NCBI RefSeq assembly: GCF_048403405.1
Contig: NZ_CP183129.1
Length of the DNA: 64,000 nucleotides
Strand: one strand, 5' to 3'
Source of the DNA: Escherichia coli
GTDB lineage: Bacteria; Pseudomonadota; Gammaproteobacteria; Enterobacterales; Enterobacteriaceae
The notes beneath the pieces are model-generated. The model was not told the DNA's origin. It saw nothing but the letters and a program-made list of their open reading frames with translations, and did not search any database. Below are positions 7,799 through 45,982 of this stretch, piece after piece; the stretch's first letter is position 1; each line of letters starts with the position of its first letter. The translations under genes were made by a program, and so were the position numbers.

Positions 7799-9175
7799 TT
7801 ATTGCTGCCAACCGCCACCAAGTGCGGTATATAAAGAAATTTCGTTAACCTGACGGGCATAATTCAGGTCAAGTAAAGTTTGTCGGGTTGCAAATAAAGA
7901 ACGTTCGGCATCCAGCACTTCCAGATAACTGACTGCGCCGTGCTGATATAATGCCCGCGCCCGTTGCAAAGTAATTTGCAGCGATGCCAGATAACGCTGC
8001 TGGGCGCTAATTTGATCGTTCAGGCTTTGACGTAATGCCAGCGCATCTGCCACTTCTTTAAAGGCATTCTGGATTTTCTGTTCATAATTCACCACCGACT
8101 GCTGCTGGCGAATTTCGGCGATATCCAGATTGGCCTGGTTGCGTCCGGCATTAAAAATGGGGATCTCAATTTTGGGAATAAAATTCCACATCCCGCTGCT
8201 GGCGTTAAATAAGGACGACAGATCGCTGCTGGCGGTCGATATTCCGCTGGTCAGACTGATAGACGGGAAAAATGCCGCGCGTGCAGCGCCAATATTGGCA
8301 TTAGCCGCCATCAACGCGTGTTCAGCTTCCATAATATCCGGGCGCTGCAATAAGATTTGCGACGACAAGCCCGCCGGTAATTTAACGCTTTGCAGGCTGT
8401 CGCTGTTTACTGTTTGCGCTTGCGGCAGCTTGCCGTAGCTTCCCAGCAACAGTTGCAATGCATTATTCGCCTGCGCCAGTTCCCCCTGACGTTTAGCGAT
8501 GTCGCTGCGGGTACTTTCTATCACCCCGCGAGCCTGTTCCAGCGCCAGAACATTGCTGCTACCGGTCAACAGTTGTTTTTCGACAAACGCATATGACTGC
8601 TGATAATTACGCAGCGTTTCTTCGGCTATTTGCAATTGCGCATACGCCAGTTGCTGATTGAAATAGCTTTGCGCGACATTAGAAACCAGCAGAATATGCA
8701 CCGCGCGCTGGGCTTCCTCAGTGGCTAAATAATTTTGGCGCTCGGCTTCGCTCATGTTCTTTAAGCGACCGAAAAAATCGAGATCAAAGCTGGCGTTAAG
8801 GCCGGTCGAAAACTCCCGTGTCGTGGCGGTATTCCCTTTAAGATTACCGCTCCAGCTGCCGCTGCCCTCGCCATTGAGCTGTGGGTAGCGGTCGGCATCG
8901 GTCAGACGATATTGCGCCCGTGCCTCCTGCACTTTCAGCGTCGCCATGCGCAAATCCCGGTTATTCACCAGCGCCTCGCTAATCAGCGTCTTCACCTGAT
9001 TATCAATAAAAAAGGTGCGCCAGCCCGCGTTCTGGTAGTTATCTGCTGCGTTAACCAGGCCGTTCTGGCTGAGTGAGAACTGCTTCGGTACGGGCATTGC
9101 CGGACGCTGATAATCCGGTGCCAATGAACAACCGGTTAGCGCAAGGGCCACACAAAATGGCAGAAGTTTAGGCAC
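7799..9175 (-). CDS. cusC: Outer membrane factor CusC, 5' end and promoter replaced by IS26
   Basis: 458-aa ORF whose first codon (GTG, complement of 9173-9175) lies inside the IS26 terminal repeat; recalled native N-terminus MSPCKLLPFCV is here (V/M)PKLLPFCV. Confidence 0.85.
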   Translation of the reverse strand: MPKLLPFCVALALTGCSLAPDYQRPAMPVPKQFSLSQNGLVNAADNYQNAGWRTFFIDNQVKTLISEALVNNRDLRMATLKVQEARAQYRLTDADRYPQLNGEGSGSWSGNLKGNTATTREFSTGLNASFDLDFFGRLKNMSEAERQNYLATEEAQRAVHILLVSNVAQSYFNQQLAYAQLQIAEETLRNYQQSYAFVEKQLLTGSSNVLALEQARGVIESTRSDIAKRQGELAQANNALQLLLGSYGKLPQAQTVNSDSLQSVKLPAGLSSQILLQRPDIMEAEHALMAANANIGAARAAFFPSISLTSGISTASSDLSSLFNASSGMWNFIPKIEIPIFNAGRNQANLDIAEIRQQQSVVNYEQKIQNAFKEVADALALRQSLNDQISAQQRYLASLQITLQRARALYQHGAVSYLEVLDAERSLFATRQTLLDLNYARQVNEISLYTALGGGWQQ

Positions 9176-9990
9176 TGTTGCAAATAGTCGGTGGTGATAA
9201 ACTTATCATCCCCTTTTGCTGATGGAGCTGCACATGAACCCATTCAAAGGCCGGCATTTTCAGCGTGACATCATTCTGTGGGCCGTACGCTGGTACTGCA
9301 AATACGGCATCAGTTACCATGAGCTGCAGGAGATGCTGGCTGAACGCGGAGTGAATGTCGATCACTCCACGATTTACCGCTGGGTTCAGCGTTATGCGCC
9401 TGAAATGGAAAAACGGCTGCGCTGGTACTGGCGTAACCCTTCCGATCTTTGCCCGTGGCACATGGATGAAACCTACGTGAAGGTCAATGGCCGCTGGGCG
9501 TATCTGTACCGGGCCGTCGACAGCCGGGGCCGCACTGTCGATTTTTATCTCTCCTCCCGTCGTAACAGCAAAGCTGCATACCGGTTTCTGGGTAAAATCC
9601 TCAACAACGTGAAGAAGTGGCAGATCCCACGATTCATCAACACGGATAAAGCGCCCGCCTATGGTCGCGCGCTTGCTCTGCTCAAACGCGAAGGCCGGTG
9701 CCCGTCTGACGTTGAACACCGACAGATTAAGTACCGGAACAACGTGATTGAATGCGATCATGGCAAACTGAAACGGATAATCAACGCCACGCTGGGATTT
9801 AAATCCATGAAGACGGCTTACGCCACCATCAAAGGTATTGAGGTGATGCGTGCACTACGCAAAGGCCAGGCCTCAGCATTTTATTATGGTGATCCCCTGG
9901 GCGAAATGCGCCTGGTAAGCAGAGTTTTTGAAATGTAAGGCCTTTGAATAAGACAAAAGGCTGCCTCATCGCTAACTTTGCAACAGTGCC
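9171..9990 (+). mobile_element. IS26 (IS6 family), copy 1, 820 bp
   Basis: 14-bp terminal inverted repeats GGCACTGTTGCAAA at 9171-9184 and complement at 9977-9990; internal tnp26 ORF. Confidence 0.95.
9234..9938 (+). CDS. tnpA: IS26 transposase Tnp26 (R29H variant)
   Basis: 234-aa protein MNPFKGRHFQRDIILWAVRWYCKYGISY(H)ELQ... matches recalled Tnp26; codon 29 is CAT here and CGT in copy 2. Confidence 0.95.
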   Translation: MNPFKGRHFQRDIILWAVRWYCKYGISYHELQEMLAERGVNVDHSTIYRWVQRYAPEMEKRLRWYWRNPSDLCPWHMDETYVKVNGRWAYLYRAVDSRGRTVDFYLSSRRNSKAAYRFLGKILNNVKKWQIPRFINTDKAPAYGRALALLKREGRCPSDVEHRQIKYRNNVIECDHGKLKRIINATLGFKSMKTAYATIKGIEVMRALRKGQASAFYYGDPLGEMRLVSRVFEM

Positions 9991-10439
9991 AATTTTACGC
10001 CGTCGGCGGTACGCAGCCAGCGCGGGGATTTGAGTCCTTCCGTGAAATTCCAGACCAGCTCACACAGCAGCCCGGTCAGGGTTTGCTCCATTTTTGGTTC
10101 CGCCGGACGTTCCAGCAGAAGCTGGAGTAGTGCGAGGCAGTATTCGCACAAGGAATCAGGTTCGGAAATAAAGTGCTCTGGTGTGGCGGGAAGGGTATCC
10201 ACGGTCAGGCTTTCGGTAAGATGCGGTGGGATGGGGTCGTGTAGTGTGGGTTGCAGTAGCGCAAGAGCCGCGTGAAGCCGCCCGCAGAGCGCCAGTCGTA
10301 GCGCTGGATCGTCGGTTTCAATCAGGGTTTCGGCAAAGCGGGCGCAGTAGTCAGCAAGGACAGTGAAATCCGTGGTGGCATTGAAGGGGACGGTCAATAG
10401 ATCGAGTAAATCGCTGTCAGTGGTGAGGATTGTAGCCAT
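9972..10439 (-). CDS. Hypothetical protein, 3' end truncated by IS26 (last ~5 codons and stop supplied by IS26)
   Basis: 155-aa ORF with GGAGG 8 nt upstream of ATG; acidic, Leu-rich product; reading frame runs into the IS26 end at 9990. Confidence 0.5.
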   Translation of the reverse strand: MATILTTDSDLLDLLTVPFNATTDFTVLADYCARFAETLIETDDPALRLALCGRLHAALALLQPTLHDPIPPHLTESLTVDTLPATPEHFISEPDSLCEYCLALLQLLLERPAEPKMEQTLTGLLCELVWNFTEGLKSPRWLRTADGVKLALLQS

Positions 10440-10785
10440 AGGGCAACCTCCGATAAGTGGGTGTTCAAGCCACCACCGGAGAGGCTAATCTCGCGGGTGG
10501 TGGAACCGGGCAGGGTTAGCCTTACCAGCCTTATCGGACACTGGCGCGTCTTGCGACGCCCCCGCCCGGCCCACCATTGAGATGTAACCGTGCGAACAAC
10601 ACAAAAAAAGACGCTGGCGCGTCATGTGTCGCCGATAAGATTTCTTCAGGAGGCTAATCCCGACGCCTGATTTTGCAGGCGCGGGAGAAAGATACTGCGA
10701 TTGGTCATGAGTGGCAAGGGCTACATCATGTTTACCGACATCTCACGCAAAAATACCCTGATTATTAATAGCGAAAATCAGTTTC
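10440..10785 (-). other. GC-rich, repeat-rich non-coding region downstream of the RT gene; candidate structured ncRNA
   Basis: No ORF of 60 aa or more; hairpin ccaccacc/ggtggtgg (10481-10503); inverted pair ccgataag/cttatcgg (10451-10458, 10530-10537); direct repeats gaggctaatc (10490-10499 and 10651-10660) and ctggcgcgtc (10541-10550 and 10611-10620). Confidence 0.3.
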
Positions 10786-13700
10786 TTATTTTGGCGGTAG
10801 CTTTTTGCGGTTCTTTGCCAACTGGAATCCTTCAGGTAACGGTTTGAATTTATCGCCGCCTTTAGGCCAGCGTTTTGCCCTGCTCTGAAATGCCCTTAAC
10901 GAGTCGATATCCAGCGTTGCAGCGACCACAAAGTCATTATCACCGCCCTTCACACGAGCAATATCACGCATAAAGGGTTCTTTTGCCGGGGAACGTACGC
11001 GACTATCGCCGTATTTTCGGTTATTCACTAAAATAGTATAGGCATGAATATCCAGCGCTGCTGATTCAATCAACGATGCAAACGTATCTAGATCTTTATT
11101 CCAGCTCAATACCATTAATGCATCGAGTGCGCCCTGAAAACGGATCCTCGCTTTACTATTCTGGAGTTCAGAGCAAATCATAACGCCAAAATTGACGCCG
11201 TGATGAATATATACCGGCTTACGTTGTTTAACATTAAGTGTCGAATCCCAAGACTTACCATAAGTTGAAAATAATGCCTCATCTTCACCTACGGCGGGTT
11301 CCAGCTTGGGTTGCCATATTTTGACACTCGCTGGATAGCCGAGTCTGTTATCTGAAAGGACAAGTACGGCCTCACTCTTCAGTTGATTATCGTCTAAGTG
11401 GCGGTATTCTGTTCCCGCAATTAGACTGATACCCGCCGAACTCAAACGATCAGCAATACTGTTAACCCAGCGTAACGGGATTGAAAGCTCAGGGAATAAA
11501 ACATAATCAGGTTTAGGAGATAGTTTCAATGTTGCATTAACCAGTTCAGAAATCCGCTGGTACCTTGAACGGGACAAGTTAGATTTATTGCAGGCCATTT
11601 TAGCCCAGTCGTCCTCCTCTGTTTTAATGCTGGTTAGCGCAACGACAACTTTATGTTTCCTGTCTGTGCCAATATGAATGAATTTCTTAGGCCGAGCTTT
11701 TTTTGTCGCTTCATCTGAGTCCTGCTCCGATGCTAGCAACGTCGGTTTGATCCATACTCCGCGTAATGCTTGAGTATATTTTGCCCAAATGGTGGACGGT
11801 CTCTCATCTGGTTTTTTGTCGGATGTGGAGGGTAATCCAACACATTCGGGGGCCAGTTCTGATATTTCAGCGGGTGTTAAAGGACGTGTAGGGAAAATGT
11901 AAGGTAGGTAACTTTCGTTTTTACGATTTCCTTTAGCCACTTTTTCCAGTCGGGTATTCTTGGTTGATTTCAAAAATAGCTTAATAACGTCAATATCAAT
12001 AAGCGATGAGTCGCTCATTAATTTCAGTATTTTAACTTCTTTTTTACTATCACGCTGATTAACAAGTTTTTCTGCCGACTGACTCTTTACGATCTGTTTA
12101 TAAGGTTCCTTTGCTAAATCAGCTCGAGCTACCAATGGCGCTTTTAAATAAAAATCTGCTGAATCAAAGCGAAGATCCAGTAAATCCTTTAGATTCGTCA
12201 GACTTTGTGAAATATGATTAAAAAATGTATCCGCAAGGCACTCTTCTTTCTTTGAACGTTTATCAAGAAATAATCTGTCAGGACTGTAATATCGTGTCGC
12301 TGCATCAACAAATAGCCAGCTTAATGTGCCTTTTATACAGCGCCAAAGATCATTTACTGCTCGAGTTTTGCAACCATTTATATTCACTTCCTTACCTGAA
12401 GTAATCACCGATGCCAACAGGTTGATGGATTCGTAAGCTTTAAGTACAATTTTTTCCGCGTGCTGCCATTCATTCATACTGATAGCAAAGCCAAGCAGCC
12501 TTGGCAGATAACTAAAATGTGCAAATAGATTATCAGCCCTAAGAATATGGTTGTAGGCAAACTGATAAAACTCTTCCCGCTGTTCTTTCCATTCACTTGG
12601 AGGCAGATCTCGTGCCAGTGTTTCAACGTAGCGTAATTGCAGTGACCAGCCCAAACGACGAATGGTTAATCCATCCGCACGGCGCAGAGTATCGGCATTT
12701 TCACCTACACTACCGGCAGCGGAAAGGACTTTAGCTGCGGTGGAGTGTTCCAGTTGATCCGGTGAAGGCATCAAGCGGTGTTCACTAGAAAGCTCGTAGA
12801 TCTCCTTTTCGATACTGTCGAGCAGGTCTATTCCAGCCCTCCCTTGAAGCACGAAAAGTTTTTGCTTATCGGATTGTAACTGGATGGTGGTCTTACCCTG
12901 GAAATGCTCGCCCTGCTGTATTTGCCATATTTGTTTTTGCTCGTTTTTCAAATAAACGCAATCATTGCCAAGCCTATCTTGCAGCAATAACATAAATTCG
13001 TGATTATTAGTAATTGTCCCTGTATCGCGTATTACAAGGAACATATCATCGACATAACGACCGTAGTGAATTGGTGATAGTTTTTCAATGACTAATTTAT
13101 CCCAATGGTGTAGCAATATATTTGAAATGATCCGACTGGCTGTTAATCCAATGACCAGACCACCATTAATAACAGGTGTTTTGTACGCTATTTTCTTTCC
13201 AAATGCCGCTGCGCCGTCAGACCAGTGCTTTAAGAATACTGCTAACTGTGCAGTAAACGCTTTTTCATCCTCAGTCAGTTTTATGTTTAGTGTGTTATAG
13301 AGATCATCAGAGGTTATAGCCAGTGGATCAATAAAATGATAGTAACTTTTTAAATCCAGTGAGGCGGCGATAATGTCACGATCTTTTTCCAACTCGTCAC
13401 GTATAGCTTTTAAGCCATCACCACGCCATTTTTGGTAGGGCTGGAAGTAGGGGCTAAAAGAACCCACGGCACTGATATGGAATGGATTATCCTGCTCATT
13501 GCTAAATAATTCATCATTACGAATACGCTTTAGCCGCGCGCCATAGCAACAGTTATCTAAGCTGGCATCAAATTTATGCCCGACCATGTTAATCCATAGT
13601 GCAGAGATAATGTGACTATCAACCGGGAAGTCACCAATAATACGAAACTCTGGTATCAGATCAAAATTATTAAATAAATGGTCGGCTGCTCGTTTAGGAT

Positions 13701-13995
13701 TAGAAAAGTGGACGTGTCCATTTTGGGATTCATGTTTTTTCTTTGTGGTTAATTTTTTCGGTAACAAACGAAATTTGCCAATCAACTTCTTATTGCTACT
13801 GAATCCATCTTCGCTCTGCAAAAGATCTAAGAGTTTTTGCAGGTTTTCAAGTAATTCCTGCTCATACTCGGCAAATTTGATAGCAACAGGAAATGTATTC
13901 TCAAAGAAGCTATCGGCTTTTGCTTTCCGGTAAGCGACCAGAAGGTCTTCAATCGTCAGATCATCCCAGCCAGTGAAAATTGCCTGATATGTCAT
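10786..13995 (-). CDS. Defence-associated reverse transcriptase fused to C-terminal nitrilase (CN-hydrolase) domain, DRT type 1-like (UG1-like)
   Basis: 1069-aa ORF with AAGGA RBS; RT motifs LDLKSYYHFID, GGLVIGLTASRIISNILL, YVDD (complement of 13045-13056); nitrilase triad context FPELS, VKIWQPK, GVMICSEL (Cys codon complement of 11173-11175). Confidence 0.75.
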   Translation of the reverse strand: MTYQAIFTGWDDLTIEDLLVAYRKAKADSFFENTFPVAIKFAEYEQELLENLQKLLDLLQSEDGFSSNKKLIGKFRLLPKKLTTKKKHESQNGHVHFSNPKRAADHLFNNFDLIPEFRIIGDFPVDSHIISALWINMVGHKFDASLDNCCYGARLKRIRNDELFSNEQDNPFHISAVGSFSPYFQPYQKWRGDGLKAIRDELEKDRDIIAASLDLKSYYHFIDPLAITSDDLYNTLNIKLTEDEKAFTAQLAVFLKHWSDGAAAFGKKIAYKTPVINGGLVIGLTASRIISNILLHHWDKLVIEKLSPIHYGRYVDDMFLVIRDTGTITNNHEFMLLLQDRLGNDCVYLKNEQKQIWQIQQGEHFQGKTTIQLQSDKQKLFVLQGRAGIDLLDSIEKEIYELSSEHRLMPSPDQLEHSTAAKVLSAAGSVGENADTLRRADGLTIRRLGWSLQLRYVETLARDLPPSEWKEQREEFYQFAYNHILRADNLFAHFSYLPRLLGFAISMNEWQHAEKIVLKAYESINLLASVITSGKEVNINGCKTRAVNDLWRCIKGTLSWLFVDAATRYYSPDRLFLDKRSKKEECLADTFFNHISQSLTNLKDLLDLRFDSADFYLKAPLVARADLAKEPYKQIVKSQSAEKLVNQRDSKKEVKILKLMSDSSLIDIDVIKLFLKSTKNTRLEKVAKGNRKNESYLPYIFPTRPLTPAEISELAPECVGLPSTSDKKPDERPSTIWAKYTQALRGVWIKPTLLASEQDSDEATKKARPKKFIHIGTDRKHKVVVALTSIKTEEDDWAKMACNKSNLSRSRYQRISELVNATLKLSPKPDYVLFPELSIPLRWVNSIADRLSSAGISLIAGTEYRHLDDNQLKSEAVLVLSDNRLGYPASVKIWQPKLEPAVGEDEALFSTYGKSWDSTLNVKQRKPVYIHHGVNFGVMICSELQNSKARIRFQGALDALMVLSWNKDLDTFASLIESAALDIHAYTILVNNRKYGDSRVRSPAKEPFMRDIARVKGGDNDFVVAATLDIDSLRAFQSRAKRWPKGGDKFKPLPEGFQLAKNRKKLPPK

Positions 13996-14289
13996 GCGTT
14001 ATCGTCCTTAGATTACAGTCTGTACAGAATTAGCCAGCCGTTTCATGCCCGAAGGGGGGCTCTTGACACCAGTAATCCATCAGTGAGGCTGGCAATAATT
14101 TTGATTTGTATCCATGTTACACGCTCCCCGCAACCAGTCCGAGCATATATTTGTCACATTTTTCCCGAAAGTGATTAAGTTTGAATTTTTTGTTTAATGT
14201 CGATTTTTAGTCGACAAAATGAGGAATAAGTAAACTATTTCTTGCTGTGGCGTATCCCTGAATCTACACTGGTTTAAATATTTGTACTA
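13996..14289. promoter_or_regulatory. Divergent promoter region between RT gene and abiEi, with palindrome gtcgatttttagtcgac (14200-14216)
   Basis: AT-rich 294-bp spacer between divergently oriented genes; inverted repeat is a candidate AbiEi operator. Confidence 0.35.
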
Positions 14290-15093
14290 ATGTCTATTCA
14301 GAGGCGACAGTTGCCAAACTATCTAAACTGGCTGATGCAGCACACGCTACCCGGCCAGGTGCTGCTCCAGTCATGGCTTACCCGCAACGGCATAGATCGT
14401 AAGCTCTCTTATCTCTATGTGAAGAATGGCTGGCTCAGGCGGATCGCTCACGGCGTATACTGCCGGACGGGCCGTGAGCCGGATTGGGTAGACGCGGTTT
14501 ACTGCCTTCAAACACAGTGGGAAAAGCCTGTTCGGGTGGCGGGGCTAACCAGCCTTGCGCTTCAGGGCCATGCGCACTATACCGAACCGGGTAAGCCGCA
14601 GGTCTGGCTCGCGCTTCCGGCTTACGTTAAGCTGCCGGGATGGTTTGCTGCCTTCGAACAATCTGCAACATTTATCACGCTGTATACATCGGGGCTTACC
14701 GTAGATGTAACGTCATTGACTACGGAACTGAAAATTGGCGACCGCCAGTTAGCAGGCAGTGCCCCGGAACTGGCCGCGTATGAGATCGCCTGCGGCGTTC
14801 CTTCGTTGATATCGTTCGAACATGCCGATGCTCTGTTTCAGGGGATGAATCTTCTCAGCCCACGCAAATTGCAGGCACTGCTTCGCGCCAGCCATTCGGT
14901 TAAAACCAACCGGGTGATGCTTTACCTTGCCCGGCGTAATGGACACCCTTATTTTCAGTATATTGATCAAAGCGGTATAGAAACAGGTACGGGAAAGCGG
15001 CAAATCATACCCGGCGGCTGGCTGGAGCCGGATTATCAAATTACTGTTCCACGCGCATTTAAACCGGAAGGAGTCGAAGATGGATCTGCGTGA
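14290..15093 (+). CDS. abiEi: AbiEi-family antitoxin/transcriptional regulator (type IV TA / abortive infection)
   Basis: 267-aa ORF, N-terminal motif ...GWLRRIAHGVY typical of AbiEi; overlaps downstream AbiEii gene by 14 nt. Confidence 0.7.
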   Translation: MSIQRRQLPNYLNWLMQHTLPGQVLLQSWLTRNGIDRKLSYLYVKNGWLRRIAHGVYCRTGREPDWVDAVYCLQTQWEKPVRVAGLTSLALQGHAHYTEPGKPQVWLALPAYVKLPGWFAAFEQSATFITLYTSGLTVDVTSLTTELKIGDRQLAGSAPELAAYEIACGVPSLISFEHADALFQGMNLLSPRKLQALLRASHSVKTNRVMLYLARRNGHPYFQYIDQSGIETGTGKRQIIPGGWLEPDYQITVPRAFKPEGVEDGSA

Positions 15094-16000
15094 TAGCTAT
15101 GCCCGGCAGGTCAAACTGTTGATGGCCGCTCTGCCGTATGTGGCGAAGGAGTCCTGTTTCGCGTTGAAAGGCGGCACCGCAATCAATTTGTTTGTGCAGG
15201 ATTTTCCCCGTCTGTCGGTGGATATTGATCTGGCGTACAAGAGCTTTGCGGATCGCGATACTGATTTGGCGGCTATCAACGACGCTTTGAAGAGGATTAC
15301 TGCATCGCTGAACGGCAGACCGGGGATCACCGCGATTCGGCAGGAAAATAAAGCGGATGAAAAGCGCATCATTGTGAATACCGCTGATGCAAAGATTAAG
15401 ATCGAGGTTAGCCCGGTCTGGCGCGGGCTGTTGTTGCCTCCGGCAGAAATGCCTGTGTGCGAACGTGTGGAAATGGAGTATGGCTTCACCACCATGAGTG
15501 TCGTCTCGCTGGCGGATCTTTATGGCGGTAAAATCTGCGCTGCGCTTGATCGTCAGCACCCGCGCGATCTGTTTGATGTGCTGAATATGCTGGAGAAACC
15601 GGGACTGATGCGGGAGATCTTTGACGGTTTTCTTTGTTATCTGGCAGGCCATCCCCGCCCCATCGCCGAGTTGCTGGCTCCAAACTGGGATACAGAGCGG
15701 ATCGCCACGTTGTACGCGCAGGAATTTTCGGGGATGACTCAGCAGGAAACGTCGCTGGAATCGCTGCTGTCAGTAACGACTTTGCTGCCGCAGGCGTTGA
15801 AGTCACATCTTACGGATCTGGATCGCGAGTTCTTGCTCAGTTTTAAGCAAAACAGCCCTGACTGGTCGCGGTATCGCTATCCTGAAATTCAGCATCTTCC
15901 GGCTATTCGCTGGAAGCAACGTAATCTGGCGGTGCTGAAAGATAAAAATCCGGCGAAGTATGTGGCGGCGGTGAATAAGCTAGAGAGGGTGCTGGCGTAA
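15080..16000 (+). CDS. abiEii: AbiEii/AbiGii-family nucleotidyltransferase toxin
   Basis: 306-aa ORF with SD GGAAGGA; motif ALKGGTAINLF...RLSVDIDLAY characteristic of AbiEii (DUF1814). Confidence 0.75.
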   Translation: MDLRDSYARQVKLLMAALPYVAKESCFALKGGTAINLFVQDFPRLSVDIDLAYKSFADRDTDLAAINDALKRITASLNGRPGITAIRQENKADEKRIIVNTADAKIKIEVSPVWRGLLLPPAEMPVCERVEMEYGFTTMSVVSLADLYGGKICAALDRQHPRDLFDVLNMLEKPGLMREIFDGFLCYLAGHPRPIAELLAPNWDTERIATLYAQEFSGMTQQETSLESLLSVTTLLPQALKSHLTDLDREFLLSFKQNSPDWSRYRYPEIQHLPAIRWKQRNLAVLKDKNPAKYVAAVNKLERVLA

Positions 16001-16364
16001 TCAATAGACCAGCATTAATCACGGATGATTACCAATCAGACAGATATGGTTAAATCATCGAATTCATAATTAATACTTTTTCTTACGCCGCTGAACAGCT
16101 TGAAAAGGATACATATTTTAAATATCAGTGAAGTGGACAGTTTATTGCCGTTATTAATAGAGATGGAGGAATAAATACGCGTATTCTACTATTGCAACAA
16201 AAACAACGATGATGATCAGTTTTCATAATGAAGTAACCTGACAGATATAAAAATGTTGATTGAGGCTCAATGCCCGGATGAAGGTTGTCGAGGGAGCCAG
16301 GTGGTTTTTTCTTTTGGGTGATCTCCATTGCTGGATAGTCCCCTCTTTCTCGCTCAAAGCAGAC

Positions 16365-16689
16365 TGTACTGCACCCATTTTGTTGGACGATGAAATGGAA
16401 TAGCCCCTAATATGTCAAAGCCAAAATACCCTTTTGAAAAGCGCCTTGAAGTCGTGAATCACTACTTCACAACTGATGATGGTTACAGGATCATCTCGGC
16501 ACGTTTTGGTGTCCCCCGAACCCAGGTCAGGACATGGGTTGCCCTCTATGAAAAACATGGAGAAAAAGGTTTAATTCCCAAACCTAAAGGCGTTAGTGCT
16601 GATCCAGAGTTGCGTATTAAGGTCGTGAAAGCTGTGATCGAGCAGCACATGTCCCTTAATCAGGCTGCTGCTCACTTTATGCTTGCTGG
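16365..16689 (+). mobile_element. IS150 (IS3 family) left-end fragment, truncated by IS26
   Basis: Begins TGTACTGCACCCATTTTGTTGGACG; encodes the N-terminal ~90 aa of InsJ/OrfA (MSKPKYPFEKRLEVVNHYFTTDDGYRIISARFGVP...) ending at the IS26 boundary. Confidence 0.8.
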
Positions 16690-17509
16690 GGCACTGTTGC
16701 AAATAGTCGGTGGTGATAAACTTATCATCCCCTTTTGCTGATGGAGCTGCACATGAACCCATTCAAAGGCCGGCATTTTCAGCGTGACATCATTCTGTGG
16801 GCCGTACGCTGGTACTGCAAATACGGCATCAGTTACCGTGAGCTGCAGGAGATGCTGGCTGAACGCGGAGTGAATGTCGATCACTCCACGATTTACCGCT
16901 GGGTTCAGCGTTATGCGCCTGAAATGGAAAAACGGCTGCGCTGGTACTGGCGTAACCCTTCCGATCTTTGCCCGTGGCACATGGATGAAACCTACGTGAA
17001 GGTCAATGGCCGCTGGGCGTATCTGTACCGGGCCGTCGACAGCCGGGGCCGCACTGTCGATTTTTATCTCTCCTCCCGTCGTAACAGCAAAGCTGCATAC
17101 CGGTTTCTGGGTAAAATCCTCAACAACGTGAAGAAGTGGCAGATCCCACGATTCATCAACACGGATAAAGCGCCCGCCTATGGTCGCGCGCTTGCTCTGC
17201 TCAAACGCGAAGGCCGGTGCCCGTCTGACGTTGAACACCGACAGATTAAGTACCGGAACAACGTGATTGAATGCGATCATGGCAAACTGAAACGGATAAT
17301 CAACGCCACGCTGGGATTTAAATCCATGAAGACGGCTTACGCCACCATCAAAGGTATTGAGGTGATGCGTGCACTACGCAAAGGCCAGGCCTCAGCATTT
17401 TATTATGGTGATCCCCTGGGCGAAATGCGCCTGGTAAGCAGAGTTTTTGAAATGTAAGGCCTTTGAATAAGACAAAAGGCTGCCTCATCGCTAACTTTGC
17501 AACAGTGCC
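16690..17509 (+). mobile_element. IS26, copy 2, 820 bp, same orientation as copy 1
   Basis: Terminal repeats GGCACTGTTGCAAA at 16690-16703 and complement at 17496-17509. Confidence 0.95.
16753..17457 (+). CDS. tnpA: IS26 transposase Tnp26
   Basis: 234-aa protein matching recalled Tnp26 (R29). Confidence 0.95.
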   Translation: MNPFKGRHFQRDIILWAVRWYCKYGISYRELQEMLAERGVNVDHSTIYRWVQRYAPEMEKRLRWYWRNPSDLCPWHMDETYVKVNGRWAYLYRAVDSRGRTVDFYLSSRRNSKAAYRFLGKILNNVKKWQIPRFINTDKAPAYGRALALLKREGRCPSDVEHRQIKYRNNVIECDHGKLKRIINATLGFKSMKTAYATIKGIEVMRALRKGQASAFYYGDPLGEMRLVSRVFEM

Positions 17510-19543
17510 AAACCGTTAGCGATTATGGTTCCGGCGTGGAATGAAACGGGCGTCATCGGCAATATGGCCGAGCTGGCGGCGACCACGCTCGACTATGAAA
17601 ACTATCATATCTTTGTTGGCACCTACCCCAACGACCCCGATACACAGCGTGATGTTGACGAAGTGTGCGCTCGCTTCCCGAACGTGCATAAGGTAGTCTG
17701 CGCGCGTCCTGGCCCCACCAGCAAAGCCGACTGCCTGAACAACGTGCTGGACGCCATCACCCAGTTTGAGCGTAGCGCCAATTTCGCTTTTGCTGGTTTT
17801 ATTCTGCATGACGCCGAAGACGTAATTTCACCGATGGAATTGCGTCTGTTCAACTATCTGGTCGAGCGTAAAGATCTGATTCAGATCCCGGTGTATCCGT
17901 TCGAACGCGAATGGACGCACTTCACCAGCATGACTTACATTGATGAGTTTTCAGAACTGCATGGCAAAGATGTTCCGGTGCGTGAAGCCCTCGCCGGACA
18001 AGTGCCCAGCGCAGGCGTCGGTACCTGTTTCAGCCGCCGCGCCGTGACCGCACTGTTAGCTGACGGTGACGGTATTGCTTTCGACGTGCAGAGTCTTACT
18101 GAAGATTACGACATTGGTTTCCGCCTGAAAGAAAAAGGTATGACGGAAATTTTTGTCCGTTTTCCGGTGGTGGACGAAGCCAAAGAACGCGAGCAGCGTA
18201 AATTTTTACAGCACGCGCGGACGTCAAACATGATCTGCATGCGCGAATATTTCCCTGATACCTTTTCGACTGCGGTTCGACAAAAATCTCGCTGGATCAT
18301 CGGCATTGTTTTCCAGGGCTTTAAAACCCACAAATGGACCTCCAGCCTGACGCTGAACTACTTTCTCTGGCGCGACCGCAAAGGGGCAATCAGTAACTTT
18401 GTCAGCTTTCTCGCGATGCTGGTGATGATCCAGCTTCTGCTGTTACTGGCGTATGAAAGTTTGTGGCCCGATGCCTGGCATTTCCTTTCTATTTTCAGCG
18501 GCAGCGCATGGTTAATGACCCTGCTGTGGCTAAACTTTGGTTTGATGGTTAACCGCATCGTGCAGCGGGTGATTTTTGTCACTGGCTACTACGGTCTGAC
18601 GCAGGGGCTGCTATCTGTCCTGCGTCTTTTCTGGGGCAACCTGATTAACTTCATGGCCAACTGGCGCGCGTTAAAACAGGTACTTCAACACGGCGATCCA
18701 CGTCGTGTCGCGTGGGATAAAACAACGCATGACTTCCCCAGCGTGACTGGCGATACCCGCTCGTTGCGCCCGTTAGGCCAAATTCTGCTGGAAAATCAGG
18801 TCATCACTGAAGAACAACTCGATACAGCACTGCGTAATCGCGTCGAAGGTCTACGCCTGGGCGGTTCAATGCTGATGCAGGGGCTGATTAGCGCCGAACA
18901 GCTGGCACAGGCGCTGGCAGAGCAAAACGGCGTGGCGTGGGAATCCATCGACGCCTGGCAGATCCCGTCCTCGCTGATTGCCGAAATGCCGGCCTCCGTG
19001 GCGCTGCATTATGCAGTGCTGCCGCTGCGTCTGGAAAATGATGAGTTAATTGTCGGCAGTGAAGATGGTATTGACCCGGTTTCGCTGGCGGCCCTGACGC
19101 GTAAAGTCGGACGCAAAGTGCGTTACGTCATTGTTCTGCGGGGACAAATTGTCACGGGGTTACGTCACTGGTATGCACGCCGACGCGGTCACGATCCGCG
19201 GGCAATGTTGTACAATGCGATTCAGCATCAGTGGCTCACGGAACAGCAGGCCGGTGAAATCTGGCGGCAATATGTGCCGCATCAGTTCCTGTTCGCCGAA
19301 ATACTGACCACGCTCGGTCATATTAATCGTTCAGCAATTAACGTGTTGTTATTGCGCCATGAACGCAGTTCTCTGCCGCTCGGCAAGTTTTTGGTCACCG
19401 AAGGCGTTATCAGCCAGGAAACGTTGGATCGCGTCCTGACAATTCAACGCGAATTACAAGTTTCGATGCAATCACTATTACTCAAAGCAGGTTTAAACAC
19501 AGAACAGGTTGCGCAACTGGAGTCCGAAAATGAAGGAGAATAA
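17510..19543 (+). pseudogene. nfrB: nfrB (c-di-GMP-controlled glycosyltransferase, phage N4 adsorption protein B), 5'-truncated by IS26
   Basis: Native reading frame begins directly at the IS26 right end (KPLAIMVPAWNETGVIGN...); ~70 N-terminal codons of the recalled 745-aa NfrB are missing; longest ORF 17525-19543. Confidence 0.85.
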
Positions 19544-24382: not shown

Positions 24383-24459
24383 TGGCGCGCCCTGCAGGAT
24401 TCGAACCTGCGGCCCACGACTTAGAAGGTCGTTGCTCTATCCAACTGAGCTAAGGGCGC
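24383..24459 (-). tRNA. argU: tRNA-Arg (anticodon UCU)
   Basis: Reverse complement reads GCGCCCTTAGCTCAGTTGGATAGAGCAACGACCTTCTAAGTCGTGGGCCGCAGGTTCGAATCCTGCAGGGCGCGCCA, 77 nt with CCA end. Confidence 0.95.
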
Positions 24460-45853: not shown

Positions 45854-45895
45854 GTCATACCACTCGCCTGATTATTTTTAGCTATGTTGGATTTT

Positions 45896-45922
45896 GCCAC
45901 GGTTTATACCGTGGCTTTTTTT
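45896..45922 (+). terminator. Rho-independent terminator after allE
   Basis: Hairpin gccacggtttataccgtggc followed by TTTTTTT. Confidence 0.6.
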
Positions 45923-45982
45923 GCGGTAAATTCAGGTAAAAAACGGATGCGGGATAAAATGCATCCGCTCTAATGGCAAGAG

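Follow-up and report, generated by a model that had tools for sequence, protein, structure and literature searches.

A predicted UG5-large reverse transcriptase–nitrilase defence gene carried beside AbiE on an IS26-bounded block of Escherichia coli

Among defence reverse transcriptases, the class 3 reverse transcriptase (RT)–nitrilases are understood least, and one gene in Escherichia coli raises the question of which branch of them it represents and whether it could work alone. The gene lies in a 64,000-nucleotide stretch of contig NZ_CP183129.1 (assembly GCF_048403405.1), referred to here as the window. A preliminary description had read it as an RT with a C-terminal nitrilase, standing alone, of foreign origin and in a defence context, and had placed it in the UG1/DRT1 class. 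The fusion, the stand-alone organization, the context and the foreign origin are all supported by our analysis, which leads to a different class. Judged by its sequence, the gene is a UG5-large (class 3 UG/Abi) RT–nitrilase, a variant without a membrane partner, like DRT11 of Sinorhizobium meliloti. The gene and its translation signal are placed as follows.

10786 to 13995, minus strand: RT–nitrilase gene (UG5-large, class 3 UG/Abi), with an ATG start and 1069 codons plus stop
14005 to 14009, minus strand: Shine-Dalgarno sequence AAGGA, 9 nt 5′ of the ATG, read from the sequence

Both the 1069-residue open reading frame (ORF) and its good ribosome-binding site had been described correctly, and the AAGGAC form of the latter is kept at the E. 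coli, Serratia, Salmonella, Yersinia and Citrobacter loci. The AT-richness that had been noted relative to the neighbours is also real: guanine-plus-cytosine (GC) content is 41.8% in the ORF, with 38.3% at third codon positions (GC3), against 51.2% for the window and 52–56% for the native flanks. Spacers of 346 nt downstream (10440–10785) and 295 nt upstream (13996–14290) separate the ORF from its neighbours.

The family assignment rests on the PADLOC model RT_UG5-nitrilase (PDLC03780), which matches residues 1–1068 with 1034 bits (E = 0) across profile positions 9–901 of 907; a separate PADLOC nitrilase model covers residues 783–1058. Together with this full-length match, the protein has an intact motif A aspartate and YxDD box and a C-terminal carbon–nitrogen (C-N) hydrolase domain with Glu, Lys and Cys, as expected of UG5-large, and its 1069 residues fit the length of that group (~1000 residues) and of its relatives (950–1130 residues). 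General collections gave a different picture. A Pfam-A scan of the whole protein returned neither RVT_1 nor CN_hydrolase, so the profile search proposed in the preliminary description succeeds with PADLOC for both domains and fails with Pfam for both, and reliance on Pfam alone would wrongly have dismissed the RT–nitrilase assignment. NCBIfam yielded only sub-threshold matches to retron, Drt2, Drt3a and Drt4 RTs, PHROGs only a weak RT match, and a protein-mode search of a phage genome collection no match to the RT–nitrilase. Because Pfam-A detects neither domain and NCBIfam only a sub-threshold RT, the folds were checked separately; the RT and C-N hydrolase domains are supported by the PADLOC models and the fold comparison together. 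The best match is to neither a retron nor a group II intron RT, with retron_St85_RT reaching 32 bits against a cutoff of 235.

That the gene is instead a DRT type 1 (UG1) system, working exactly as DRT1 does, is very improbable. The two share their domain order, UG1 nitrilases are nested within the UG5 radiation, and the Drt1a models do respond to the protein: PDLC03745 (UG1) matches the RT with 89 bits (4.3e-26), and the Drt1a-type model PDLC02171 matches the nitrilase end, residues 940–1045, with 34 bits (1.2e-9). DRT1 is also the only solved structure matched in both domains, its entry 9YFD being the best PDB relative by family profile (101 bits, E 5e-28). However, the PDLC03745 match is confined to residues 151–409, against the 1034 bits of the UG5-nitrilase model over the full length, and the length of 1069 residues falls short of the 1200–1300 residues of UG1 proteins (PMC9226505). 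Only the RT core and the nitrilase align with 9YFD in the profile comparison, leaving the middle domain unaligned; a single-sequence phmmer search scores 9YFD at 30 bits, over the nitrilase end only, and hhalign of the family alignment against the DRT1 sequence (taken from a machine-read supplement) aligned 105 columns, again only at the nitrilase end. Neither a full-length Drt1a match nor a close relation to 9YFD is found, and the hidden Markov model (HMM) scores imply that the protein falls outside the UG1 clade.

The protein divides into the following domains and motifs, all on the minus strand.

12775 to 13995, residues 1–407: N-terminal extension and RT fingers, palm and thumb, with the motif A aspartate D214
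residues 213–223: LDLKSYYHFID, RT motif A
residues 278–295: GGLVIGLTASRIISNILL, motif B-like
13045 to 13056, residues 314–317: YVDD
12766 to 12789, residues 403–410: SSEHRLMP motif closing the thumb helix and followed by a loop of low confidence
11716 to 12672, residues 442–760: alpha-helical middle domain, almost all helix in the AlphaFold2 model, with a predicted local distance difference test score (pLDDT) mostly of 85–93
10885 to 11682, residues 772–1037: nitrilase (CN-hydrolase) domain
residues 834–838: FPELS
residues 891–897: VKIWQPK
residues 937–944: GVMICSEL
11488 to 11490, 11305 to 11307, 11284 to 11286 and 11173 to 11175: nitrilase tetrad E836, K897, E904 and C941, respectively
10789 to 10884, residues 1038–1069: C-terminal tail, containing KPLPEGF (residues 1051–1057, 10825 to 10845)

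Every motif quoted in the preliminary description was found in its place, YVDD exactly so. To judge residue conservation, we aligned 60 relatives of 27–76% identity. D214, Y311, R313, Y314, D316 and D317 of the RT are invariant, as are E836, K897, E904 and C941 of the nitrilase. Because these residues are invariant across sequences so far apart, the RT and nitrilase motifs are, on this comparative evidence, functional signatures rather than chance. The Glu-Lys-Cys context that had been pointed out is present, with one correction: the catalytic lysine is K897, the last lysine of VKIWQPK, and not K892. E904 completes the nitrilase tetrad as its fourth catalytic residue.

Two further motifs emerge from the same alignment. 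At the end of the thumb, S-S-E-x-R-L-[LM]-P is nearly constant (S404 in all 60 sequences, E405 and R407 in 58 each, P410 in 57). Ser404 stands 87 residues past YVDD and directly before the low-confidence loop of residues 409–441, and occurs in DRT11 and DRT5L as well. In the tail, KxxPxGF keeps K1051 and P1054 in 60/60 sequences and G1056 in 56/60, and R1063 beyond it is again constant (60/60); this motif aligns with K1219-T-Q-P-A-G-F1225 of DRT1 and with the tails of DRT11 and DRT5L.

The prediction of the full protein that had been suggested as a check was run with AlphaFold2 on the 60-sequence alignment, and it returned RT and nitrilase folds with a mean pLDDT of 87.2 and a predicted TM-score (pTM) of 0.89. 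The loop of residues 409–441 is poorly ordered (pLDDT 43–63), and residues 1038–1069 form an extended C-terminal tail. From the domain division of this model, the N-terminal region and the linker, to which no motif had been assigned, are conserved and well-predicted parts of the fold: the N-terminus belongs to the RT, and the linker is the alpha-helical domain.

How such a protein might act is best judged from its characterised relatives, and the earlier statement that the mechanism of this class is poorly characterised is out of date. The closest of them is DRT11, a validated UG5-large RT–nitrilase of S. meliloti RMO17 (bioRxiv 10.64898/2025.12.16.694600). A tblastn search against plasmids gave 29.8% identity over residues 13–1067 (33% in the alignment), the match lying on pSymA of RMO17 at 109347–112340, the published DRT11 coordinates. 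DRT11 shares YVDD, the serine equivalent to Ser404, the E-K-E-C tetrad and an FKPxPxGF tail with the window protein, and it too is a single gene without a membrane partner or non-coding RNA (ncRNA). It differs in length (1005 against 1069 residues), in its residence on an alphaproteobacterial megaplasmid, in sequence (~30% identity), and in that its defence has been shown experimentally. RNA sequencing detected no ncRNA for DRT11, and deletion of its upstream region was tolerated; protection depends on DD296-297 and C876 and is limited to low multiplicity of infection (bioRxiv 10.64898/2025.12.16.694600).

A second relative comes from E. coli itself. The E101 “RT-nitrilase + 1TM” system (Rousset 2022) is the DRT5L of Neville et al., the supplement sequences of the two beginning identically. 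Like the window protein it belongs to the UG5 group and has an SS-x-x-R-L motif and a K-x-x-P-x-G-F tail; its RT and nitrilase are 27–29% identical to those of the window protein, and the middle domain is left unaligned by BLASTP. Whereas E101 is a gene of a P4-like satellite and has a downstream membrane protein reported to be necessary (PMC9226505), the window gene has no such partner and sits beside a C4/isrK (“ash”) cassette in the decayed island at thrW. Purified DRT5L and DRT5S carry out template-free, protein-linked DNA synthesis (PMC13275509).

The most detailed mechanism is that of DRT1, whose cryo-electron microscopy structure is 9YFD (PMC13275509). DRT1 makes template-free, protein-linked DNA primed on Ser402, which lies in a disordered segment that follows the RT; the A-rich DNA adducts cause the protein to assemble into tetramers and filaments by way of its nitrilase domains, and its last 19 residues are domain-swapped between protomers as a lid over the nitrilase site (PMC13275509). 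Defence is abolished by K1219A or A1223F, requires both the RT and the nitrilase activity, proceeds by abortive infection and needs T4 Dda for triggering (PMC13275509). With DRT1 the window protein shares the order of RT, helical domain and nitrilase, the nitrilase tetrad and a C-terminal lid motif, K1219..PAGF aligning with K1051..PEGF. In both, a serine follows YVDD beside a disordered loop, 77 residues on in DRT1 and 87 in the window protein, and an alpha-helical repeat domain occupies in DRT1 the place of the helical middle domain. In contrast, DRT1 belongs to another HMM family, is ~160 residues longer and aligns only in the RT core and nitrilase; filament formation, serine priming and Dda dependence are known only for DRT1. 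More distant still are the class 1 protein-primed Abi polymerases (AbiK, Abi-P2 and AbiA) and DRT4, which have no nitrilase effector, prime on other residues, and have helical domains and oligomers unlike those expected of the window protein.

The observed family membership, intact active sites and folds, together with the lack of a partner or RNA and the defence-island and mobile context described below, are best explained, with a probability of roughly 0.6, by a UG5-large RT–nitrilase defence gene that would use Ser404-primed, template-free DNA synthesis to bring about abortive infection. By analogy with its relatives, the RT would need no template to make short single-stranded DNA and would prime it on a residue of its own, for which we propose the invariant Ser404 as the counterpart of DRT1 Ser402. 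The DNA adduct would lead to oligomerization through the nitrilase domains, and the KxxPxGF tail would cover the nitrilase active site of the neighbouring protomer and hold it closed. A phage replication function could then perturb the closed state, releasing the E836-K897-E904-C941 nitrilase to act on an essential small molecule, and the infected cell would halt growth or die ahead of phage release. The surroundings are those of a defence gene: AbiE is adjacent, and 19 of 37 related loci place the RT–nitrilase at the end of a type I restriction-modification (R-M) operon.

Several points weigh against this explanation. Identity to every characterised relative is at most 30%. The DRT1 priming serine is reported not to be conserved in other class 3 DRTs (PMC13275509), and the region of Ser402 and Ser404 is aligned by neither HMM nor hhalign; because of both, the case for Ser404 as primer is a positional argument only. 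UG5-large E101 was active only at room temperature (Rousset 2022) and is reported to require its membrane protein (PMC9226505). The E. coli copy is severed from its ancestral upstream operon, and no sigma-70 consensus promoter was found in 13996–14290, so that its expression is not assured. Finally, a literature search found no paper that mentions the E. coli RT–nitrilase, and the activities proposed here are drawn by analogy.

A different role would be that of a gene serving its mobile element, or of a metabolic nitrilase joined to a degenerate polymerase domain. The gene does travel, on islands, on Tn7-like elements and here in an IS26 unit, but the RT catalytic residues are invariant across 27–76% identity, defence genes make up the overwhelming share of its neighbours, phage defence by validated relatives depends on both activities, and class 3 RT nitrilases group in a clade separate from the metabolic enzymes (PMC9226505). 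We consider either role highly unlikely.

Does the gene need a second component? In E101 this would be a membrane protein. No such partner was found downstream, where the ORFs peak at 0.89–1.14 in a 19-residue Kyte-Doolittle scan, and the 155-residue downstream ORF has no defence-family match. A downstream membrane protein is optional in UG5-large, being present in 31 of 299 members (PMC9226505). Four more distant loci (L021, L026, L029 and L041, 48–66% identity) do carry a hydrophobic ORF of 42–157 residues directly after the RT–nitrilase, with Kyte-Doolittle values of 1.55–2.93; the arrangement is the one published as “RT-nitrilase + TM”, and the E. coli subfamily lacks this small ORF.

A neighbouring RNA would be the other candidate, with the RT copying an ncRNA from 10440–10785 or 13996–14290 in the manner of retrons, DRT2 and DRT9. 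Both flanks are long and non-coding (346 and 295 nt) and the downstream one is highly structured, but its structures are those of known RNAs.

10493 to 10581, minus strand: C4 antisense RNA (Rfam, 71.1 bits)
10604 to 10682, minus strand: isrK (Rfam, 68.8 bits)
10643 to 10695, minus strand: c4-a1b1 target element (Rfam, 43.8 bits, just under the gathering cutoff of 46.7)

These RNAs have their own promoter-like site (10717–10689) and terminator-like site (10623–10610), and RefSeq annotates the spacer as “ash family protein”. The segment 10493–10695 is a phage-type antisense immunity cassette for the gene after it, and is not part of the RT system. The ORF that follows the cassette (9972–10439) encodes 155 residues, its last six codons replaced by an IS26 end. 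A role of the spacer 10440–10785 in the RT system, which the preliminary description had entertained, is not supported: it holds the C4/isrK phage RNAs and is not conserved beside the gene in other genera. At the loci of those genera, nucleotide homology to the window stops at the RT stop codon, and 500-nt segments downstream are conserved only among closely related islands. For the upstream spacer, predicted folding does not beat that of shuffled controls (z +0.93). Most relatives have a preceding gene whose end falls anywhere from 4 nt within the RT gene to ~20 nt short of its start (the gap is somewhat larger at a few loci), which leaves no space for an RNA gene, and Rfam detected neither retron nor group II intron RNA anywhere in the window. 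Since the flanks are unconserved, the upstream spacer is unstructured and preceding genes nearly abut the RT start, there is, as far as sequence can tell, no candidate template RNA at either flank, in agreement with the RNA-seq and deletion data for DRT11. With neither spacer conserved beside the gene beyond close relatives, and a retron RT score in NCBIfam far under its cutoff, copying of a neighbouring ncRNA appears most improbable.

Upstream, the window holds a second defence system and the trace of a third.

14290 to 15093, plus strand: AbiEi (PADLOC, 2.5e-79; the RefSeq start is equivalent to 14311)
15080 to 16000, plus strand: AbiEii (PADLOC, 4.4e-116)
13996 to 14056, minus strand: residual 3′ end of a KwaB-like gene, abutting the RT start codon on its 5′ side

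AbiEi and AbiEii form a toxin–antitoxin defence pair, divergent from the RT gene, which RefSeq annotates in genomes that include E. coli 042. In complete E. coli genomes, the RT–nitrilase lies in a decayed island at the tRNA-Thr gene thrW, in which integrase and helix-turn-helix (HTH) pseudogenes, a 156-residue ORF, the ash/C4 cassette, the RT–nitrilase and the divergent AbiEi/AbiEii follow one another. Serratia marcescens has the same AbiE–RT–ash arrangement at 81% protein identity, with the divergent spacer partly conserved. A palindrome in the RT–AbiEi spacer, ATGTCGAC-N-TCGACAT (window 14200–14225), is kept in E. coli, Serratia and an Enterobacteriaceae metagenome-assembled genome (L012, L013); it may be an AbiEi operator and possibly also influence RT transcription. 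An AbiEii-type nucleotidyltransferase toxin module adjoins the RT–nitrilase not only at the E. coli and Serratia loci but also at the DRT11 locus (L048). Such a pairing at RT loci that are ~30% identical could be coincidence or recurrent pairing.

Elsewhere the gene keeps other company. At 19 of the 37 informative loci (L004, L006, L008–L011, L014–L016, L021, L023, L028, L030, L034, L036, L040 and L044–L046), a co-directional hsdR-hsdM-hsdS cluster ends with the RT–nitrilase. The slot separating hsdS from the RT is variable, occupied by Kiwa KwaA/KwaB at nine of these loci, PDC-M59A/B at three, a 588-residue ATPase at three and PDC-S06 at one, and empty at three. At least two types of type I hsdM are involved, in 544-residue and ~474-residue forms. 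A 4-nt overlap between the RT start and the gene upstream occurs at L010 (hsd-linked, PDC-S06) and at L007 (588-residue ATPase, no hsd detected). At other loci, a short prokaryotic Argonaute (pAgo) system, an LmuB-like ATPase or Tn7-like transposition genes adjoin the RT–nitrilase. Homology (blastn) to the Salmonella, Yersinia and Citrobacter loci continues for 55–60 nt upstream of the RT start, where it enters the last part of their KwaB-like gene. Because ~60 nt of that 3′ end remain, the E. coli copy must have been cut out of a Kiwa–RT arrangement.

This history raises the question of whether the E. coli gene is an orphaned remnant, poorly expressed or deprived of its partner, the functional unit being a larger operon (type I R-M, or Kiwa or the ATPase, with the RT–nitrilase) or an RT with a membrane protein. 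The excision itself, the missing consensus promoter and the decay of the thrW island, with its integrase and HTH pseudogenes, would all fit, as would the close spacing or overlap between the RT start and the preceding gene in relatives, which suggests co-transcription. The hydrophobic ORF downstream in distant members (48–66% identity) and the reported need of E101 for its membrane protein (PMC9226505) point the same way. Yet the ORF is intact, no catalytic residue is missing, and 259 of 5426 complete E. coli genomes carry it at 99% identity or more. Serratia, at 81% protein identity, retains AbiE–RT together with a partly conserved spacer and the Shine-Dalgarno sequence, and the arrangement has therefore persisted through divergence. 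The gene upstream of the RT varies by locus, arguing against an obligate partner, and DRT11 works alone. On balance, we think a remnant unlikely, and favour the UG5-large gene acting by itself.

A bolder reading of the same loci would make the ~1067-residue subfamily a dedicated last gene of type I R-M operons with a swappable slot, and would make Ser404 and KxxPxGF a universal class 3 priming site and lid. Were this so, the subfamily would be a co-transcribed abortive-infection backstop, triggered when restriction fails, and universal priming at Ser404 would contradict the published view of the DRT1 serine as family-specific. Across E. coli, Vibrio, Marinobacter and Alteromonas, identity within the subfamily is ~70%. 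We regard this proposal as doubtful; the association with type I R-M operons, like the conserved serine and the tail motif, counts as a lead rather than a surprise, and the current picture of the family is extended, not changed.

The relatives are numerous. A full HMMER scan of cluster representatives gave 2013 matches at E ≤ 1e-3 and 856 at E ≤ 1e-30. Among them, a tight subfamily of ~1067 residues is 69–82% identical in Citrobacter, Salmonella, Yersinia, Serratia, Vibrio, Marinobacter, Alteromonas, Idiomarina, Pseudomonas and others, and the cluster of the exact (100% identical) E. coli sequence has 1122 database members. The genome count given above was obtained with a 3.85-kb query comprising the gene and both spacers, at ≥99% identity and ≥80% coverage; its 259 matches correspond to ~5% of complete E. 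coli genomes and include strain 042. Published work already covers the family, how it is classified and its part in defence, and current defence-annotation models recognize this protein outright. The ~1067-residue subfamily and the E. coli protein appear to be new to experiment, and a literature search with protein accessions of the E. coli RT–nitrilase found no mention of them. Present in well-studied 042 among others, the protein offers a convenient native E. coli model of UG5-large without a membrane partner, with a high-confidence predicted structure and three sharply testable sites: S404, C941 and K1051–F1057.

Identical copies of the RT–nitrilase also occur on CP088862.1 (35 kb) and NZ_CP146678.1 (64 kb), which are listed as E. 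coli plasmids and typed non-mobilizable. Phage tail and baseplate genes lie near the copy on CP088862.1. Both records may be excised or misassembled segments of chromosome or prophage.

In the window, the thrW block has left its usual site and is bracketed by two insertion sequences.

9171 to 9990, plus strand: left copy of IS26, with terminal repeats GGCACTGTTGCAAA at 9171–9184 and 9977–9990
16690 to 17509, plus strand: right copy of IS26, with terminal repeats at 16690–16703 and 17496–17509

The two copies are complete and in direct orientation, share a 300-nt exact direct repeat, at 16690–16989 in the right copy, and are annotated as IS26 in matching records. With the 6.7-kb thrW block between them (9991–16689), they form an IS26 pseudo-compound transposon. 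An ORF at 9216–9938 was considered as cusR and rejected, being the IS26 transposase. Outside the IS26 copies, the start of cusC (7799–9175) is clipped and nfrB (17525–19543) lacks its first 67 codons; cusR and cusS are gone, replaced by the IS26-bounded insertion. Loss of cusR, cusS and the start of nfrB should cost copper and silver sensing and the NfrB function used by phage N4. No 8-bp target duplication was found at the block, and its IS26 junctions occur in none of the 5426 complete E. coli genomes. IS26 has relocated the RT–nitrilase and AbiE as one block, which directly confirms the mobility of the gene, and this copy, together with the layout of type I R-M, variable slot and RT–nitrilase, shows how such genes travel. 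Two ordinary enterobacterial features elsewhere in the window, unrelated to the RT–nitrilase, are a match to the small RNA STnc480 (45860–45926, minus strand) and tRNA-Arg(TCT), argU (24383–24459, minus strand).

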